From NCBI GenBank assembly GCA_903915465.1, contig CAIWTA010000082.1:4183-68182 (forward strand): DNA of 64,000 nucleotides, written 5' to 3'. The translations under genes and the position numbers were made by a program. Source of the stretch: an uncultured Bacteroidales bacterium. GTDB lineage: Bacteria > Bacteroidota > Bacteroidia > Bacteroidales > FEN-979. The notes beneath the pieces were generated by a model that saw nothing but the letters and a program-made list of their open reading frames with translations, searched no databases and was not told the origin of the DNA. The first letter of the stretch is position 1; every line of letters starts with the position of its first letter. Below are positions 25,332 to 32,663 of this stretch, piece after piece.

Positions 25332-25460
25332 TCAAGCTAAATATAATTAGAAAGGGATTCGTAGAAAAGGTTCTTGAATGGTTTAGTTTGAAGCATTAGG
25401 CGGTTACGGTTGTCTGAGAGAAGTGGGGATCACCAAAATGTGATTCCCACTTTGCTTTTA
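25332..25460 (+). ncRNA. candidate small RNA of about 130 nt, family not recognised
   Basis: It is bounded by the orphan promoter above and the terminator at 25423-25460. There is no ORF beyond a few codons inside it. It lies in a 440-bp gap between clpS and a convergent gene. Confidence 0.3.
25423..25460 (+). terminator. rho-independent terminator
   Basis: An 11-bp stem, GTGGGGATCAC-CAAAAT-GTGATTCCCAC, with one G-U pair, is followed by TTTGCTTTTA. It could also act in reverse for the minus-strand gene ending at 25528, but that side has only a weak U tract. Confidence 0.6.
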
Positions 25461-25527: not shown

Positions 25528-26292
25528 TTAAAGTATATAAGGTATTAAAGCTCTTCTCCTTGCAGGATAATCAGGAAATGTGGCCTTATACCATTGATGA
25601 TGATTCAACGCCCTTGGAATTAAATTCACTATTGTCCAGATCGCAAATGCCAGTCCTGGTAAGCTCCACGTCATTAAAGCAAATCCGCACCATTCTAAGA
25701 TCTCGCTGAAATGATTGGGACATGAAATAACCTCGAACAATCCCCCTTGTGGAATTGTGTATCCCTTTTCTCCCGGTTTTCTTAAATGTATAAGAATATT
25801 GTCAGACTGCCAGTTTTTGGACAGACCATAGATACTCAAGAAAAGTCCCGCAATAAAACAGGGACTATGGAGCCAGGAAAGTTCATACTTCTCTGAAAGA
25901 GATCCAAAATAATATCCATTAATAAATCCATTTACCAGATTAAAGCAAAATGCCATCAACACAATGATAAATGGTATTTTCTTTCCTTTAGTCCTAAGCC
26001 TGAAAGGGAAAACCAATGTTCTGTTGATATAGTGTATCATCCAGAAAGCAAAAAAAACCCAAGGCACGATGTTATGCTTTAGAGTACCAAAAAGAAAGAA
26101 AAAGGCAAAAGCAAGTAATGCAGGTGACTCCATAATCATCCACCCGATTTTATTACTGATTAATGGTCCCCACGCAGTTGTAGTGTGTCTGCCGTATGGA
26201 GCAATAATCCTCAAAATAACAGGGAAAAGAATAACTGCAACAGCAATCCAGATGTAGATAAAAAAATAAAAATTCGTGGTTGACATAACCAA
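25528..26292 (-). CDS. 3-oxo-5-alpha-steroid 4-dehydrogenase (steroid 5-alpha-reductase) family membrane protein
   Basis: A polytopic membrane protein. The family-typical C-terminus is GGLFEVISCPNHFSEILEWCGFALMTW...RALNHHQWYKATFPDYPARRRALIPYIL. Confidence 0.8.
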   Translation of the reverse strand: MVMSTTNFYFFIYIWIAVAVILFPVILRIIAPYGRHTTTAWGPLISNKIGWMIMESPALLAFAFFFLFGTLKHNIVPWVFFAFWMIHYINRTLVFPFRLRTKGKKIPFIIVLMAFCFNLVNGFINGYYFGSLSEKYELSWLHSPCFIAGLFLSIYGLSKNWQSDNILIHLRKPGEKGYTIPQGGLFEVISCPNHFSEILEWCGFALMTWSLPGLAFAIWTIVNLIPRALNHHQWYKATFPDYPARRRALIPYIL

Positions 26293-26293
26293 G

Positions 26294-27280
26294 TTATTTT
26301 TTGTTTAGAAAATCATTTTTGTTAAACCAATTGAAGATATCTGTTATCGTTTCCTCAATAGGTCTTGGGGTGAAACCAAGCTCTTTCCTCGCTTTTGAAT
26401 TAGAAATCAGTTTGTTTGACTTTTTAATAATTTCTAACGACTCCTTAGTATAAAGTGGAACAGCTCCGGTTATCCTGCTGTGAAAAGTGATGAAAGGAAG
26501 TCCGGCTTTTGCTACCCAGAAAGGCATTTCCATTTGGGTTGTTCTTTTCTGAGTCGTTTTTTCGATTAAAATCGCGATTTCTTTTAAACTATGCCATTTT
26601 CCTGATAATAGATATTTTTCCCCGTTCCTTCCTTTATTAATAGAATCAATTGCTGCAGAAACGATGTCTCGAACATCAACCCAATTGTATCCACCCGGAA
26701 CCAATGCTGGAATCTGCCTATTGACCAATTGAAGGAATGCTTTTCCCATCAATGACGGTTCGTAATCCATCGGACCAATGATTGCAGTAGGACTTAGAAT
26801 AAAAGCATTTAAACCATTGTTCGCAGCTTCCATTACGATTCTTTCACCATCCGCTTTTGACCGGTCGTAAGAAAATGCGTTGTCATCTACCAATTCTCTG
26901 GTCTCATCCAGAGTCTGGTTCAGCGGCTCCTGGCGGAATGCATGAATAGAGCTAAAATGGATAAACTTTTTCACGCCCGCTTTCTGAGAAGCCTGAATAA
27001 TATTCCGTGTTCCCTCCACATTGAGCCTTCTTACAGTTCCAAGAGGGTCACCGGCAATCGATATTTTGGCAGCAAGATGGAACACAACATCAACACCGTC
27101 TACAAATGATTCTAAAAAATTAGGATCGAGCAAATCACCTTGAAAAATAGTTGTTTTCAAATGCTTAAGAGCATAATCATTTTGATGGCTTAATGCTCTG
27201 ACATAATCCCCTTTCTCTACTAATTTTTGGCACAAATTAGCCCCTACATGGCCATTGGCGCCAGTAACAGCAATTATCAT
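26294..27280 (-). CDS. extended SDR, NAD(P)-dependent epimerase/dehydratase / dihydroflavonol-reductase / HpnA-like
   Basis: Rossmann motif VTGANGHVGANL and catalytic YDRSK. Its stop lies 1 nt from the start of the 5-alpha-reductase-like gene, suggesting co-transcription. Confidence 0.8.
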   Translation of the reverse strand: MIIAVTGANGHVGANLCQKLVEKGDYVRALSHQNDYALKHLKTTIFQGDLLDPNFLESFVDGVDVVFHLAAKISIAGDPLGTVRRLNVEGTRNIIQASQKAGVKKFIHFSSIHAFRQEPLNQTLDETRELVDDNAFSYDRSKADGERIVMEAANNGLNAFILSPTAIIGPMDYEPSLMGKAFLQLVNRQIPALVPGGYNWVDVRDIVSAAIDSINKGRNGEKYLLSGKWHSLKEIAILIEKTTQKRTTQMEMPFWVAKAGLPFITFHSRITGAVPLYTKESLEIIKKSNKLISNSKARKELGFTPRPIEETITDIFNWFNKNDFLNKK

Positions 27281-27349
27281 AACAATATACTTGAAATAAC
27301 AAAGATAATAGTTTTTATAAAATACATAAAGAAATAGAAATCTGCCTGG

Positions 27350-28516
27350 TCATGCGGAAATCCTTTCCAATCCTGATTTTGCATTCAGGATATTCTGCAC
27401 CGGGCGAAATTCATTCCGAATCAATTGCCAACGGTTTGGATATTCGTTAAAGAGATGAAGAATCTTTGATCGGTGCTTTTTTAGGGCATCAGTAATAGCT
27501 GGAGGTGAAATGGGTTTTGGAAATTCATTTCCAAGATTTGAACTGGTCAGTATTTTATTTTGCGATTTTAATAGGTTAGCTGCATGCTCTAATCTATCCA
27601 ATAAAATAATCGTTTTTGCATATTTAACAGGAACTTCACCAACATGTTCTTTAAGCTGTTCTTTCACTTTTTGTTCCTGCTCTATATCGAAAAATAGATG
27701 GAAATCAGAAATGAGAACGTCACTAATACTTCTTTCCGGCACCATTGCATCAGCGTATTTTGCAGCTTTTTCCAAAATTGCCTTTAGATTGTCAATACTT
27801 CCGTCAAAACCCTTTATCTTTTTTATAGTGGATTCCGAAAATTTATAATTTCTTGAATTTTTACTGGAAATCTCCTCTAAATAGCTATAAGATAGATGAA
27901 TTATTCCATCTTTCAATTTCTCGGTAAGATGAGAAACCTCTTTTCGGAGTTCATTAACTTCATAAAGGATGTTGCGTGTATTCTCGGTAAGTGTAGCAAA
28001 TAATTCTTTATCCTCTTTTTGGATGTCGAAATGGGCAATAATTGAATTTCTGATTAGATGTGCAATGATCGTTTTATTACCAGTTGACAGTATTTTGGTA
28101 GGATTGATTGTTCCAAAATTACTAAGATCCGTCTTAAAATAAAAGAAAAAAAGATCATTATAACCATCGACAGAATTCTTAATTCTAATTAATAAAATAT
28201 TGTTATTAAATTCATTAAATATATTTAATTGAATCTTTTCTTTAGGTTTAATTTCGAAAGGCAAATCTTCAATTCTCAGCCAAGTGTAAGGAGAATTATC
28301 CAACCGGAAACGGTTTAAGATTGAAGTAGAGTCAGAGACATGAAATGATTCTTGAAAATACTCCCCGTTATCATTTTTTAACATCGTAGATACCAGATTC
28401 TCTTTCTCGTCGGTACAGTAAACAGCAACCACTTTTTCAATACCCGGAAGCAATTTAGGCAAGATATTGAGTATGAAAAGAATGGGTTTTTCAGTAAACG
28501 AAAAAGATCTTTTCAT
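27350..28516 (-). CDS. hypothetical protein, 388 aa, no domain recognised
   Basis: A long uninterrupted ORF whose codon usage looks like its neighbours'. The centre is rich in heptad-like charged segments (NELRKEVSHLTEKLKDG, QEQKVKEQLKEH). It sits behind a minus-strand TAtaTTTG box at 28535-28542. Confidence 0.6.
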   Translation of the reverse strand: MKRSFSFTEKPILFILNILPKLLPGIEKVVAVYCTDEKENLVSTMLKNDNGEYFQESFHVSDSTSILNRFRLDNSPYTWLRIEDLPFEIKPKEKIQLNIFNEFNNNILLIRIKNSVDGYNDLFFFYFKTDLSNFGTINPTKILSTGNKTIIAHLIRNSIIAHFDIQKEDKELFATLTENTRNILYEVNELRKEVSHLTEKLKDGIIHLSYSYLEEISSKNSRNYKFSESTIKKIKGFDGSIDNLKAILEKAAKYADAMVPERSISDVLISDFHLFFDIEQEQKVKEQLKEHVGEVPVKYAKTIILLDRLEHAANLLKSQNKILTSSNLGNEFPKPISPPAITDALKKHRSKILHLFNEYPNRWQLIRNEFRPVQNILNAKSGLERISA

Positions 28517-28534
28517 TTAGCATTAAGTTTTATG

Positions 28535-28542
28535 CAAATATA
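28535..28542 (-). promoter_or_regulatory. TAnnTTTG -7 box (minus strand) for the 388-aa gene
   Basis: The reverse complement of CAAATATA is TATATTTG, 18 nt upstream of the ATG at 28516. It is embedded in the TTAAG array. Confidence 0.4.
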
Positions 28543-28680
28543 TGCTTAAATATATGCTTAAACAAATTTAAGTTAAAATTGTTGCTTAAAATTGTTAAGT
28601 AAATTTTTCAGCATAAATAGAATAAAAAAGTTAAGTCAAAAATAATACTTAAATAGCTTGATATCAACCTAATAAAAATA

Positions 28681-28688
28681 TAGATTTG
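28681..28688 (+). promoter_or_regulatory. TAnnTTTG -7 box (plus strand) for the 28746/28996 genes
   Basis: TAGATTTG lies 58 nt upstream of the ATG at 28746. Confidence 0.4.
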
Positions 28689-28745
28689 TCATATTTTAAA
28701 ATCACATACTTAATAGTTATACTCATTTATTAAGCAAATTAAGTA

Positions 28746-28952
28746 ATGGCAGAATTTGATTATTATTCAATAATGGAGAAGCGGATTAATTATTTATCAA
28801 AGAAATACGATCCATTTAATAAATTTTCCAGAGAATGGGAAAAGATTACAGAAAAGCAAAATTGTACTCAATCTATCAAACCGAAATTAAAAAAAATACT
28901 TGCGAAACAAATGGCTGAAATCTATAATTCTGTTATCGCATTTTTACTCTGA
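28746..28952 (+). CDS. small hypothetical protein (68 aa)
   Basis: ATG-initiated ORF 44 nt upstream of the next gene on the same strand. It is a charged, helical-looking sequence. No homology recognised. Confidence 0.35.
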   Translation: MAEFDYYSIMEKRINYLSKKYDPFNKFSREWEKITEKQNCTQSIKPKLKKILAKQMAEIYNSVIAFLL

Positions 28953-28995
28953 ATGTCTTTTTTAAAGTACCTTTACTTCATAAAAACAGACCATT

Positions 28996-29997
28996 ATGAA
29001 AACATGCAAGAAAATTTTTATCGGGTTGTTAGGACTGATCGTTCTTTTACTGGTCATCGCTTTTCTGCTACCTTCTAAATATCATGTTGAGCGCAACACA
29101 TTCATTATGGCGAACAAATTGACAATCTATGATCTGACAAGTCATTTCCAAAAGTGGGATCTTTGGGCACCCTGGACTCAGAAAATTGACTCCACAGCAA
29201 AATTTGAACTTGTTGGCCCCGATGGTGAAGTCGGTACAAAGCGGATATGGGATGGGAAAATCCTGAGAGATGGAGAAATGGTGCTTACTCAGCTTATTCC
29301 GGGAGAACTCGTTGCATACAACCTTTCGTTCCATAAAGGAGACTACAAATCCAAAGGGAAGTTAACGATCGAAGCACTAGGAGATTCCTGTAAAGTTTCC
29401 TGGATTGATGATGGTGATCTTGGCTATAATCCCATTTCCCGATATATGGGGCTTTTTATGGGAAAAATGATGAATCCGGATTTTGATAAAGGCCTTTCAA
29501 AGCTTAAAACGGTTGCGGAACAACGTAAATCCTGGCCAAAGATGAAGGAAACAACAATACCGGAACAATTTGTCCTGGTTATAGTAGATTCTGCTAGGAT
29601 AAAAGATTATAAGAAAGTCATGGGAAATGCCTTTGGAGAGATATTTAAATATATACAAACCAGCGGACTTAAACAAAACGGTTCTCCATTTTCAATTTGC
29701 CTAAAATGGGATTCTGTTACAAAAAGTTCTGTTATGAAAATAGGTGTTCCTGTGAATAAAGAAGGAAAAAATAATGGAAGGATAGCAGCTGAAAAAATTC
29801 CTGCCCAGAATGCAGTGATGGGATATTATTTTGGCCCTTATGATAAAATTGAGTCTGCTTATAACGCCCTTGCTCAATATTGTAAAGAAGGTAAAAATGA
29901 AATTACAGGCGGACCTTGGGAAATCTATATCTCAGATCCAATGATCGAAAAAGATTCAATGAAATTTGAAACTCATATCCTGTTTCCGATAAAATAA
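28996..29997 (+). CDS. membrane-anchored SRPBCC (START/Bet v1-like) plus GyrI-like small-molecule-binding fusion protein
   Basis: N-terminal TM (IFIGLLGLIVLLLVIAFLL). SRPBCC-like half (YHVERNTFIMANKLTIYDL...WAPW). GyrI-like half (AVMGYYFGPYDKIESAYNALAQYCKEGKNEITGGPWEIYISDP). Confidence 0.65.
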   Translation: MKTCKKIFIGLLGLIVLLLVIAFLLPSKYHVERNTFIMANKLTIYDLTSHFQKWDLWAPWTQKIDSTAKFELVGPDGEVGTKRIWDGKILRDGEMVLTQLIPGELVAYNLSFHKGDYKSKGKLTIEALGDSCKVSWIDDGDLGYNPISRYMGLFMGKMMNPDFDKGLSKLKTVAEQRKSWPKMKETTIPEQFVLVIVDSARIKDYKKVMGNAFGEIFKYIQTSGLKQNGSPFSICLKWDSVTKSSVMKIGVPVNKEGKNNGRIAAEKIPAQNAVMGYYFGPYDKIESAYNALAQYCKEGKNEITGGPWEIYISDPMIEKDSMKFETHILFPIK

Positions 29998-30274: not shown

Positions 30275-30781
30275 TTATTTGAATTCCTTTTTCAGCAATT
30301 CAACCCAGCCTGCAACTCTTTCCCGTGTCAGATGGTTTTCATACTCTTCATCGATTGCCAGTCCTACAAGTTTTCCTTTAACCAGGGCTAAGGAGTTTTC
30401 AAATGAATATCCTTGACGTACAACAGATCCTACAATGTTGGCATTTCTCTTCAGGAGCCATTCATATAATATCCCCATCGCATCCACAAAAGTTGAGGAA
30501 TAGGTACTTTGATCTCCCAAACCAAACAAAGCAACTTTTTTTCCTGTAAAATCAATTTCTTCAAGAGTTTCCAGAAAATCCTCAAAATCGTCCTGCAGGT
30601 CACTAACTCCCCAGGTTGACAATCCGAAGATAAGATAGTTATATTTTTCAACATCTCCTTTTTCAGCAAGATCAACGTTCATGATATCTGCTGCATCTTC
30701 TCCAAATGTCTTCCGTATAAGAACCGCAATGTTTTCTGTATTCCCGGTTGTGGTTCCATAAAATATTCCGATGTTTGCCAT
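30275..30781 (-). CDS. fldA: long-chain flavodoxin
   Basis: MANIGIFYGTTTGNTENIA FMN-phosphate loop, the WGVSDLQDDFEDF block, and a 168-aa length. Confidence 0.9.
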   Translation of the reverse strand: MANIGIFYGTTTGNTENIAVLIRKTFGEDAADIMNVDLAEKGDVEKYNYLIFGLSTWGVSDLQDDFEDFLETLEEIDFTGKKVALFGLGDQSTYSSTFVDAMGILYEWLLKRNANIVGSVVRQGYSFENSLALVKGKLVGLAIDEEYENHLTRERVAGWVELLKKEFK

Positions 30782-30798
30782 AATTGCAACTATTTTCG

Positions 30799-30806
30799 TA
30801 CGTTTG
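30799..30806 (+). promoter_or_regulatory. TAnnTTTG -7 box for the sensor kinase
   Basis: TACGTTTG. Its position implies a transcript start near 30813, which rules out the track ATG at 30771. That ATG would also overlap the fldA start. Confidence 0.45.
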
Positions 30807-30827
30807 TCCTATCCAAAATGCCTGATT

Positions 30828-32663
30828 TTGCTAAACTCACAAGTCAAAAGTAGCAAAATTTCCATAAGAAACATATCGCTTACGGAGAAACTTGTTCTTT
30901 ACTTTCTCATTATCGGGATTGGCGTTATCTCCGTGATAAGTTTTTATTCATTCTACAGCACAAAGAATGCATTGATGAGCCGGACTTTCGACCAGTTAAC
31001 TTCGTTAAGGCTGGTAAAAAAGAACCAGGTGGAGATCTTTTTCAGTGATCGCCTCAAGGACCTTACACTCCTCTCCAATGCTTATGATACAAAGCAGATC
31101 ATTTCATTTTTTAATGCTTGCAGAAAAAAAGGAAATGGTTCAGATGATCAGGAACTACTGGAAAAATATTCAGAATACCTGAATAAATACAAGGCACTTA
31201 GGAACTATTTTAGTTGCATTTATCTGGTTGGTGTGGATCAAATAGCGTTGAAGGGCTTTCTTCAAAATGAAATCAAACCTTTAATTGTAACAGATAAGAT
31301 CTTTGGGCAACAAATTATTACTTTTTCAGCCTCTCATTTTCAGCATCATCGGATTATTCTTCTCGACATGATCCCGGATCCACAGACTCATTTGCCGGTT
31401 CTGTTTATTGCTGCTCCGGTAACTTCAGAAAGTAAGGAAATCGACGGCTGGCTGTTTCTTGCAGTTTCGATTGAGGCGATCAATAAGATCATGGTAAACA
31501 ATAATCCTAAAAGCGGATTAGGTATGACTGGCGAAACCTATCTTGTGGGTAATGATTTCAAGCTTCGTTCCGGATCAAGGTTTATCCCGAATTCTATCCT
31601 GAATACCATCGTAAGGACACAACCAGCAATCAAAGCATTAAACAGGCAGGAAGGGCAAGTTATCACACCGGATTATAGAAACATTACGGTATTGTCCTCG
31701 TTCAGCAGGGTCGATGTCCCCGGCATAAATTGGGTTATTCTTGCCGAGATTGATTTGAAAGAGGCCATGATCCCGATCTACAGGATGCGGAATAGTTTGT
31801 TGATTCTAAGCCTTCTCATTTCCGTAATATTCTTCATTTTCGTGTTCTTCACCTCAAAAAAGATCACGAAACCTATTATCCTGTTGAGAGATGCTGCTAT
31901 GCGTATCGGGAAAGGACAATATGACGTGGATATACCTGTAAGGGCAAATGATGAAATCGGGGCACTAACCAGGGCTTTCAATATAATGTCGGCACAGATC
32001 AAGGAAAAAACCAAGGAGTTACAATCTGAACGTATTGGTCGTCTGCGTTCAGTGATTGATGCCGAAGAAAGCGAAAGGCAACGTCTTTCAAGGGAAATCC
32101 ATGATGGGATTGGGCAATCGCTGATCGCCCTGAAGCTCAGGTTGGAGAGTTTGCTTTACATTGAAAGTTCTGAGATCAAAGCAAACATCAACGTGTTGAA
32201 AGACCAGTTCGATGGAACAGTTGATGAGATCAGGCGGATCTCAAATAATCTAATGCCTTCGGTTCTCGAGGTTTTCGGGATAACCATTGCATTGCGGAAT
32301 TTATGTGACGAAACCGAAGAACATTGTGAGATTAACATCATTTATGGAACATCCGGTGATCTGGAAAATATCAATACAAAAATTAAAACCTATTTATTCA
32401 GGATCGCACAAGAAGCTTTTAACAATATCATCAAGCATTCCGGGGCAAAAGAAGTGGAGATCAAACTTATCCGGATCAATGAAATTGTTAATTTTACCAT
32501 TCGTGACAATGGAAGGGGCTTCGATGTAATTGATGTTGCTTTCGAAAAAGGTAATGGTTTGCATAATATGCGTGAACGGGTAGCTTTGATGGAAGGAACC
32601 ATCGACATCAAATCAAAACTTAACCAGGGAACAGAAATTATTATTCAAATTCCCGTTTTCTGA
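30828..32663 (+). CDS. sensor histidine kinase (Cache-like periplasmic domain, HAMP, HisKA_3, HATPase_c; NarX/LiaS class)
   Basis: Two TM segments flank a roughly 280-aa extracytoplasmic region. HAMP (ANDEIGALTRAFNIM). HisKA_3 H-box (ERQRLSREIHDGIGQSL). ATPase N/G boxes (QEAFNNIIKHSGA, DNGRGF, GNGLHNMRERV). Start proposed at the in-frame TTG at 30828, with low certainty. Confidence 0.85.
   Translation: MLNSQVKSSKISIRNISLTEKLVLYFLIIGIGVISVISFYSFYSTKNALMSRTFDQLTSLRLVKKNQVEIFFSDRLKDLTLLSNAYDTKQIISFFNACRKKGNGSDDQELLEKYSEYLNKYKALRNYFSCIYLVGVDQIALKGFLQNEIKPLIVTDKIFGQQIITFSASHFQHHRIILLDMIPDPQTHLPVLFIAAPVTSESKEIDGWLFLAVSIEAINKIMVNNNPKSGLGMTGETYLVGNDFKLRSGSRFIPNSILNTIVRTQPAIKALNRQEGQVITPDYRNITVLSSFSRVDVPGINWVILAEIDLKEAMIPIYRMRNSLLILSLLISVIFFIFVFFTSKKITKPIILLRDAAMRIGKGQYDVDIPVRANDEIGALTRAFNIMSAQIKEKTKELQSERIGRLRSVIDAEESERQRLSREIHDGIGQSLIALKLRLESLLYIESSEIKANINVLKDQFDGTVDEIRRISNNLMPSVLEVFGITIALRNLCDETEEHCEINIIYGTSGDLENINTKIKTYLFRIAQEAFNNIIKHSGAKEVEIKLIRINEIVNFTIRDNGRGFDVIDVAFEKGNGLHNMRERVALMEGTIDIKSKLNQGTEIIIQIPVF

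Follow-up and report, generated by a model that had tools for sequence, protein, structure and literature searches.

In a 64-kb stretch of contig CAIWTA010000082.1 from an uncultured Bacteroidales bacterium (called the window here; positions are counted from its first nucleotide), two adjacent genes on the minus strand, one for an extended short-chain dehydrogenase/reductase (SDR) and one for a membrane protein of the steroid 5-alpha-reductase type (5AR), appear to form the functional unit, a predicted two-gene operon in the order SDR, then 5AR, with its own promoter. The gene identities, the intact catalytic residues, the operon structure and the conservation of the pair across many genomic contexts were observed. 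For the chemistry, a redox relay is put forward which has about an even chance of being correct: the pair would carry out 3-hydroxy/3-oxo interconversion together with NADPH-dependent 5-alpha saturation of a 3-oxo-delta-4 steroid- or triterpenoid-like lipid. The protein families as such are already known; apparently new is the widely conserved operon of an HpnA/SdmB-like SDR and an SRD5A1/2-type reductase, which is distinct from the cluster of gut bacteria, and an earlier description of this pairing was not found in the open-access literature. A preliminary description of the same DNA had proposed a five-gene module for the modification of steroids, bile acids or polycyclic lipids. Its five open reading frames (ORFs) and their domain calls were all reproduced, with the same coordinates and strands, and the domains it had proposed for scanning (Steroid_dh, Epimerase/3Beta_HSD, Polyketide_cyc2/SRPBCC, GyrI-like) were all matched with Pfam; of its interpretation, the SRD5A-type reductase with a linked SDR was retained, and the five-gene module and the analogy to gut bile-acid metabolism were given up.

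The reductase ORF encodes 254 amino acids (aa), contains NHFSEILEWCGF and has the C-terminal end YPARRRALIPYIL. It matched PF02544 (Steroid_dh) with E = 5e-53 and 179.5 bits, the gathering cut-off being 22.6, and no NCBIfam model matched it. Comparison with the SRD5A family was based on PDB-derived sequences, namely PbSRD5A, SRD5A2 and one TECR. In phmmer searches the protein aligned end to end with PbSRD5A (7C83; 233 bits, 2.9e-68, 43% identity, residues 17-253) and also with human SRD5A2 (7BW1; 147 bits, 5.9e-42, 40% identity, residues 25-253), whereas the TECR-type enoyl reductase art-1 gave just 45 bits (8.5e-11). The catalytic residues E55 and Y88, corresponding to E57 and Y91 of SRD5A2, and the NADPH-contact residues N160, D164, R171, N193, E197, R, H and Y are all conserved; the roles of these residues in SRD5A2 and PbSRD5A have been described (PMC7815742). 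By these scores the window protein would appear to be a true SRD5A1/2-type enzyme and not TECR-like, which agrees with the 5-alpha-reductase signature noticed previously. All bacterial SRD5A1/2-type enzymes assayed to date act on 3-oxo-delta-4 steroids (PMC7815742, PMC10382948, PMC11301207, PMC11131428): PbSRD5A reduces progesterone (PMC7815742), the 5AR of gut Bacteroidota reduces 3-oxo-delta-4-lithocholic acid (PMC10382948), and T. denticola and Leifsonia DET2 reduce 3-oxo-delta-4 steroids (PMC11301207, PMC11131428).

Two details of the reductase gene deserve mention. In the QEY motif the glutamine is replaced by methionine, and the exchange Q56A/L is known to inactivate human SRD5A2 (PMC7815742). 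A loss or change of function was considered on these grounds, but the exchange does not serve to discriminate, methionine being present in 13 of 13 aligned bacterial homologues, the gut-type clade included. Alternative starts are a TTG codon (254 aa) and an ATG at 26286, two codons in (252 aa, P0001), which is used in public gene calls and is probably the start. The gap of 1 nucleotide (nt) between the SDR and reductase genes given in the preliminary description holds for the TTG start; with the ATG it is 7 nt.

The SDR has 328 aa, with Pfam matches to Epimerase (PF01370, 9e-29) and 3Beta_HSD (7.6e-25), and possesses the characteristics of the extended SDR superfamily, i.e., GxxGxxG at residue 7 (GANGHVG) and YxxxK at residue 138 (YDRSK). 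Among PDB structures it is related to an extended SDR (3WJ7, 146 bits); weaker matches are a nucleoside-diphosphate-sugar epimerase (2X4G), a kavalactone reductase and a cinnamoyl-CoA reductase. The closest named NCBIfam families, both matched over the full length, are HpnA (TIGR03466, 224.7 bits, cut-off 367.65) and SdmB (NF052578, 189.5 bits, cut-off 600), so that the HpnA-type affinity suggested before was confirmed at a level below the cut-offs; the match to OleD was weak (88 bits). Membership in either family was not assigned, because of these scores and because squalene-hopene cyclase and hpn genes in the case of HpnA, and a Rieske oxygenase in the case of SdmB, are missing from the 64-kb window. 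Since the scores are below both cut-offs, the SDR is predicted to represent a third branch of the subfamily, next to HpnA and SdmB. Calothrix SdmB alone converts lanosterol to lanosterone, and in sterol C-4 demethylation SdmB/SdmC are responsible for decarboxylation and for reduction of the 3-keto group; enzymes of the SdmB family oxidize the 3-OH and reduce the 3-keto group of sterols (PMC10202945). By its relationships the window SDR is a probable 3-hydroxy/3-oxo oxidoreductase.

For the distribution of the pair, relatives of the reductase from 20 genome loci and 80 metagenome loci were sampled, and the window proteins were mapped onto each; 85 loci were informative. An SDR gene lies directly upstream of the 5AR gene in 57 of them: on the same strand in all 33 loci with at least 57% identity of the 5AR, in 23 of 48 loci with 48-57% identity, and in one of four below 48%. 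Since this order is found in 57 of the 85 informative loci, the adjacency should not be due to chance. The estimated gaps between stop and start codons are mostly 10 nt or less. The linkage of SDR and reductase in relatives, which the preliminary description had made a point of, was thus encountered over a wide range of divergence (33 of 33 close loci, 23 of 48 at 48-57% identity), and the situation it had named as speaking against a module, placement in a housekeeping clade together with lack of a linked SDR among relatives, was looked for and not encountered. Conservation of the neighbourhood, which it had proposed to test, held for the SDR-5AR pair, did not hold for the 388-aa and flavodoxin genes, and was reduced to lineage synteny for the SRPBCC/GyrI-like gene.

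When 21 distant pair-bearing loci, amounting to about 16 independent genomic contexts, were clustered all against all, SDR and 5AR were the only families common beyond near-duplicate loci. A recurring third gene or functional theme beside the pair was not found in these distant loci, the neighbours being unrelated housekeeping genes. One of the loci lies on a complete Dehalococcoidia chromosome, where the stop codon of the SDR and the start codon of the 5AR overlap. The same sub-threshold signature, with HpnA scoring above SdmB, was present in nine of ten distant SDR partners; the tenth (locus L062) is OleD-like. Pairwise distances of SDR and 5AR are correlated (r = 0.89 among distant loci, Mantel 0/2000). 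In a neighbour-joining tree of tblastn segments, which is only indicative, the SDR-linked reductases fall in several clades, one of them next to PbSRD5A.

Two kinds of exceptional partners were seen. In L061 (2650-3684) and L062 (4925-5956) the 5AR is preceded by an OleD-like SDR (2-alkyl-3-oxoalkanoate reductase family, about 175-179 bits), with divergent EthD and DUF1214 genes beside it; here the partner seems to have been replaced by a non-orthologous one. The upstream SDR of L005 (2835-3428) could be aligned over just 198 of 328 residues, and a gap of 153 nt comes after it; truncation, a frameshift or faulty assembly of this metagenome-assembled genome (MAG) may be the cause.

In 26 of 27 related loci a box of the sequence TAnnTTTG, the -7 consensus of Bacteroides promoters, is located 20-35 nt ahead of the SDR start codon, with about 0.01 per locus expected by chance; in the window it reads TATCTTTG (see the table). 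It is present in loci with and without the 388-aa gene, which lies upstream of the SDR gene; this conservation irrespective of the neighbour argues that the SDR-5AR pair carries its own promoter, as predicted from motif and position. On the other side of the pair, a hairpin with a 14-bp stem followed by a T-run on the plus strand is located at 25420-25453, where the ClpS and 5AR genes converge. This hairpin probably serves as terminator of ClpS and might also end the SDR-5AR transcript, although there is no T-run on the minus strand.

The window is a part of the core chromosome, with genes for DnaA, FtsY, Lon, leucyl/phenylalanyl-tRNA protein transferase, 2-hydroxyacid dehydrogenase and class-V aminotransferase. 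Public metagenome contigs hold a reductase identical to that of the window, and also an identical 388-aa protein. The named genomes nearest by 5AR (65-73% identity) are MAGs of uncultured Bacteroidales or Bacteroidota from Lac Pavin, plus MAGs with MFD isolate names, which presumably stand for Microflora Danica; the sources of the relatives are lake, soil or sediment metagenomes.

In the proposed relay, translation of the SDR would be coupled to that of the downstream seven-helix membrane reductase. The SDR would interconvert hydroxyl and ketone on a polycyclic lipid embedded in the membrane, as SdmB does at sterol C-3; the reductase could then pass a hydride from NADPH to the beta-carbon of the conjugated enone so formed, whose carbonyl would be polarized by Glu55 and Tyr88. 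A 5-alpha-saturated ketone would result, and the SDR could return this ketone to the alcohol. The net result would be conversion of a stenol or 3-oxo-delta-4 steroid to a product of the 5-alpha-stanol type. A 3-hydroxy/3-oxo-delta-4 steroid or triterpenoid substrate is favoured by the homology of both the SDR and the reductase; we infer the direction of the reactions as well as the steroid- or triterpenoid-like nature of the substrate.

Several points weigh against this relay. The substrate is not readable from sequence, and, since the SDR would stand on a third branch, its specificity is given neither by HpnA nor by SdmB. PbSRD5A, the nearest structural relative of the reductase, was crystallized with monoolein in its pocket, and its native substrate is not established (PMC7815742). 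Scavenged steroids fit the housekeeping-like context in the core chromosome no better than an endogenous lipid does. A search for squalene or oxidosqualene cyclase, the Rieske oxygenase SdmA and hopanoid genes across the 64-kb window yielded none, and genes for sterol or hopanoid biosynthesis, uptake or catabolism were neither present in the window nor recurring beside the pair elsewhere. An adjacent SDR is missing from about half of the loci with 48-57% identity, and the correlation of SDR and 5AR distances stems in part from shared species history.

The explanation which survives best beside the steroid or triterpenoid relay, and which is still unlikely, is that the pair acts on another endogenous membrane lipid with an enone or allylic alcohol, for example a keto-lipid or a long-chain 3-oxo/enoyl intermediate. 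The monoolein in the PbSRD5A pocket (PMC7815742) would fit such a substrate, as would the OleD-like partners in L061 and L062, the weak OleD match of the window SDR itself (88 bits), and the vertical inheritance of the pair in anaerobes that are unable to make sterols; on the other hand, every bacterial homologue assayed takes steroids, and TECR-type enoyl reductases are much more distant from the 5AR.

Somewhat less probable again is alpha-saturation of a polyprenol, where by analogy the SDR would oxidize undecaprenol to the enal, the 5AR would saturate C2=C3, and the SDR would reduce the aldehyde, giving a dolichol-like carrier lipid. The precedent is the three-step dolichol pathway of DHRSX and SRD5A3, in which an SDR alternates with a reductase of the SRD5A family (PMC11250103). 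Such a role would agree with the position of the pair in the core chromosome among housekeeping-like genes, where catabolic genes are missing, and weak hints come from polyprenyl-phosphate-dependent functions encoded at two loci: in L056 (6756-10182) the pair is followed by two GT4 glycosyltransferase genes and a Wzy_C O-antigen polymerase/ligase gene, and in L086 (3177-4715) a PMT_2 (ArnT-like) gene precedes the pair. Such a glycan context was seen, however, in just two of about 16 contexts. Moreover, the SDR is of the extended HpnA/SdmB-like and not of the classical DHRSX-like type, and the reductase is a 254-aa protein of the SRD5A1/2 type with 40% identity to SRD5A2, while TECR, the sole structure outside SRD5A1/2 that was compared, reached 45 bits.

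The other genes of the supposed five-gene module were examined with respect to their association with the pair; coordinates of all features are collected in the table.

Table. Features of the SDR-5AR locus and its surroundings in the window
Feature	Position	Strand	Basis or remark
Predicted SRD5A1/2-type NADPH-dependent enone (3-oxo-delta-4) reductase, seven transmembrane helices (7-TM)	25528..26292	-	PF02544 and alignments with SRD5A structures; second gene of core operon
Extended SDR, HpnA/SdmB-like subfamily	26294..27280	-	Pfam, NCBIfam, motifs; first gene of core operon
Bacteroidetes-type -7 box, TATCTTTG	27300..27307	-	Consensus match and positional conservation; 27 nt upstream of SDR start codon
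388-aa protein, uncharacterised family	27350..28516	-	Neighbour of the pair, outside the core
Promoter/operator-like block with TTAAGC/GCTTAA half-sites, 12-nt tandem duplication and TATATTTG -7 box (TAnnTTTG)	28535..28589	-	Upstream of 388-aa gene
Conserved small ORF, 68 aa + stop	28746..28953	+	Between 388-aa and SRPBCC/GyrI-like genes, co-oriented with the latter
Membrane-anchored SRPBCC + GyrI-like fusion, 333 aa	28996..29997	+	PF10604, PF06445; divergent from operon
Flavodoxin FldA, 168 aa	30275-30781	-	NCBIfam cut-offs passed

The 388-aa protein gave zero Pfam or NCBIfam matches. Its family comprises 466 representatives at 50% clustering, all with about 365-400 aa. An AlphaFold2 (AF2) model (pLDDT 75.6, pTM 0.46) contains an N-terminal alpha/beta domain, a helix of 75 residues and C-terminal helical bundles. 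A profile search produced weak matches to the NtrC family (E = 5e-5), and Foldseek weak matches of the Cache/GAF/LasR-like and ZraR types, none at E of 0.001 or less; the protein could possibly be a ligand-sensing regulator, a suggestion of low confidence. Only some of the close loci have the gene, and it is missing from many in which the pair is retained. The block upstream of it is kept in eight loci (L002, L003, L006, L007, L008, L022, L023, L024); in the window its 12-nt unit AAATATATGCTT is duplicated exactly (tandem repeat at 28536-28562), and the block may be a candidate autoregulatory operator. In loci without the 388-aa gene no TTAAGC block was found ahead of the SDR, which means that the block belongs to the 388-aa gene. 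The 388-aa gene would thus be a separate, lineage-specific insertion with its own predicted promoter, located outside the core operon, and could not be kept as part of a module, in view of its own promoter block, its absence from many pair loci and the presence of a distant member elsewhere. This distant member (384 aa; L105, 3581-6155) is divergent from another 388-aa protein without Pfam match, possibly a paralogue; its neighbours are genes for a two-component system and cytochrome bd, with no SDR-5AR pair nearby. The conserved small ORF, which had been overlooked in the preliminary description, gave tblastn E values from 6e-13 to 2e-7 at the same position in eight related loci, and the gene calls of L106 and L107 include it with 66 aa. 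The ORF occurs mainly in loci that carry the 388-aa gene, and both may therefore have arrived together.

The fusion protein has a hydrophobic N-terminal helix (Kyte-Doolittle up to 3.3), a Polyketide_cyc2/SRPBCC domain (1e-9, residues 30-175) and a GyrI-like domain (9.4e-12, residues 188-333). Its family was represented by 195 matches, each of about 333 aa and none from outside the Bacteroidales lineage. Within the lineage the gene is always near the SDR-5AR pair and divergent from it, with variable inserts between. The interval from the fusion gene to the SDR gene is a variable insertion spot (L103, L104, L043), which is empty in some loci and occupied by the 388-aa gene and the small ORF in others; in L103 and L104 (1804-6001) it is occupied by four other genes, which include an exosortase EpsH-like one. 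ClpS, NUDIX and DUF5074 genes persist on the other side of the pair as consistently as the fusion gene, and the latter is absent from all distant SDR-5AR loci; its linkage is for these reasons not independent evidence of function. From gene order, the SRPBCC/GyrI-like gene appears to be tied to the pair by lineage-level synteny only, and its proposed place in a module was abandoned, its co-occurrence being confined to that alongside the flanking ClpS, NUDIX and DUF5074 genes.

The flavodoxin passed the NCBIfam cut-offs for FldA and long-chain flavodoxins (NF006739, 197 bits, cut-off 175; TIGR01752, 192.5 bits, cut-off 146.75). In relatives it is not syntenic near the pair. As an ordinary FldA without conservation near the pair it was also removed from the module, all the more as SRD5A enzymes use NADPH directly. 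None of the three, the 388-aa protein, the SRPBCC/GyrI-like protein or the flavodoxin, is required. The longest ORF of a divergent histidine kinase gene (30771-32663, plus strand) overlaps the region of the flavodoxin start codon by 11 nt (30771-30781); the true start of the kinase is probably further downstream than 30771.

With these results, a module of the gut type for allo- and isoallo-bile acids, or a five-gene sterol pathway that would include the 388-aa protein, the SRPBCC/GyrI-like protein and the flavodoxin, is improbable. The 5AR does belong to the same family as that of gut Bacteroidota, and in the whole lineage the SRPBCC/GyrI-like gene keeps its divergent orientation to the pair, whatever is inserted between them; but it is missing from all distant pair loci, the flavodoxin is not syntenic, and the 388-aa gene is optional and predicted to be separately promoted, so that for the last two the pathway is already largely refuted. 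The gut-type architecture was encountered in one sampled locus (L018, 8010-11562, Bacteroidales MAG W2P33.019), where an Oxidored_FMN gene and then two classical SDR genes come after the 5AR gene; this 5AR has 39% identity to that of the window. A scan revealed no Oxidored_FMN gene in the window and no adh_short gene near the 5AR, and without a flavin-dependent 5-beta-reductase or a classical SDR the locus is not a member of the gut cluster type; the extended SDR and the origin of the relatives from lake, soil and sediment also speak against the bile-acid analogy. That the adjacency of SDR and 5AR arose by chance or is inherited synteny alone, with no functional coupling, is very improbable. 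About half of the loci with 48-57% identity do lack the SDR, but some 16 unrelated contexts have just SDR and 5AR in common, with gaps within about 10 nt, a consistent partner subfamily and an occurrence across phyla, Dehalococcoidia included.

Bacterial homologues of human steroid 5-alpha-reductase are common, and many environmental ones would appear to be inherited in a tight operon with one SDR subfamily. The closest characterized relatives of this subfamily act at sterol C-3, which makes for a testable two-enzyme route from alcohol to enone, saturated ketone and alcohol. The pair is set apart from the gut bile-acid cluster and could serve as a candidate marker of sterol saturation in the environment or, alternatively, of a dolichol-like pathway in bacteria. 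Its carriers are anaerobic environmental Bacteroidales, with independent pairs in Dehalococcoidia and other lineages, and it could perhaps be speculated, although the probability appears small, that the SDR-5AR operon is the genetic basis of microbial hydrogenation of stenols to 5-alpha-stanols in anoxic waters and sediments. This change underlies the stanol/stenol proxy for redox state and diagenesis (Wakeham 1989, as cited in PMC7292411). In a full-text search of the open-access literature no paper was found in which 5-alpha-reductase is mentioned along with stanols and stenols or with anoxic settings, nor was a prior description of genes for environmental stanol formation; for Leifsonia DET2 the native role is expressly stated as not known (PMC11131428).

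Among known systems, PbSRD5A (7C83) and human SRD5A2 (7BW1) resemble the window reductase in their size of about 254 aa, the 7-TM topology, the Glu/Tyr pair and the NADPH-contact residues, whereas the window protein has Met for Gln in the QEY motif and is predicted to be operon-coupled to an SDR. For this SDR, SdmB/SdmC and HpnA are the closest named families, matched over the full length; unlike in those systems, neither an SdmA Rieske oxygenase gene nor hopanoid genes lie nearby in the window, and the partner is a 5-alpha-reductase. The characterized cluster of gut Bacteroidota, insofar as it is known from the account of Sato et al. 2021 given in PMC10382948, consists of a 5AR, a predicted 3-beta-hydroxysteroid dehydrogenase and an NADH:flavin oxidoreductase, the putative 5-beta-reductase. 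It shares with the window the 5AR family and the pairing of an enone reductase with a hydroxysteroid dehydrogenase, but its partners are a classical SDR and a flavoenzyme of the old yellow enzyme (OYE) type, where the SDR of the window is of the extended HpnA/SdmB-like kind and has no flavoenzyme beside it; the organisms differ as well, being environmental in one case and from the gut in the other, with 5ARs about 39% identical. DHRSX and SRD5A3 differ from the window pair in that they are eukaryotic and encoded by unlinked genes, DHRSX is a classical SDR, SRD5A3 belongs to another subfamily and the substrate is a polyprenol; nevertheless, with their sequence of alcohol to carbonyl, saturation of the C=C bond, and carbonyl to alcohol, they would provide the mechanistic template for the relay proposed here.

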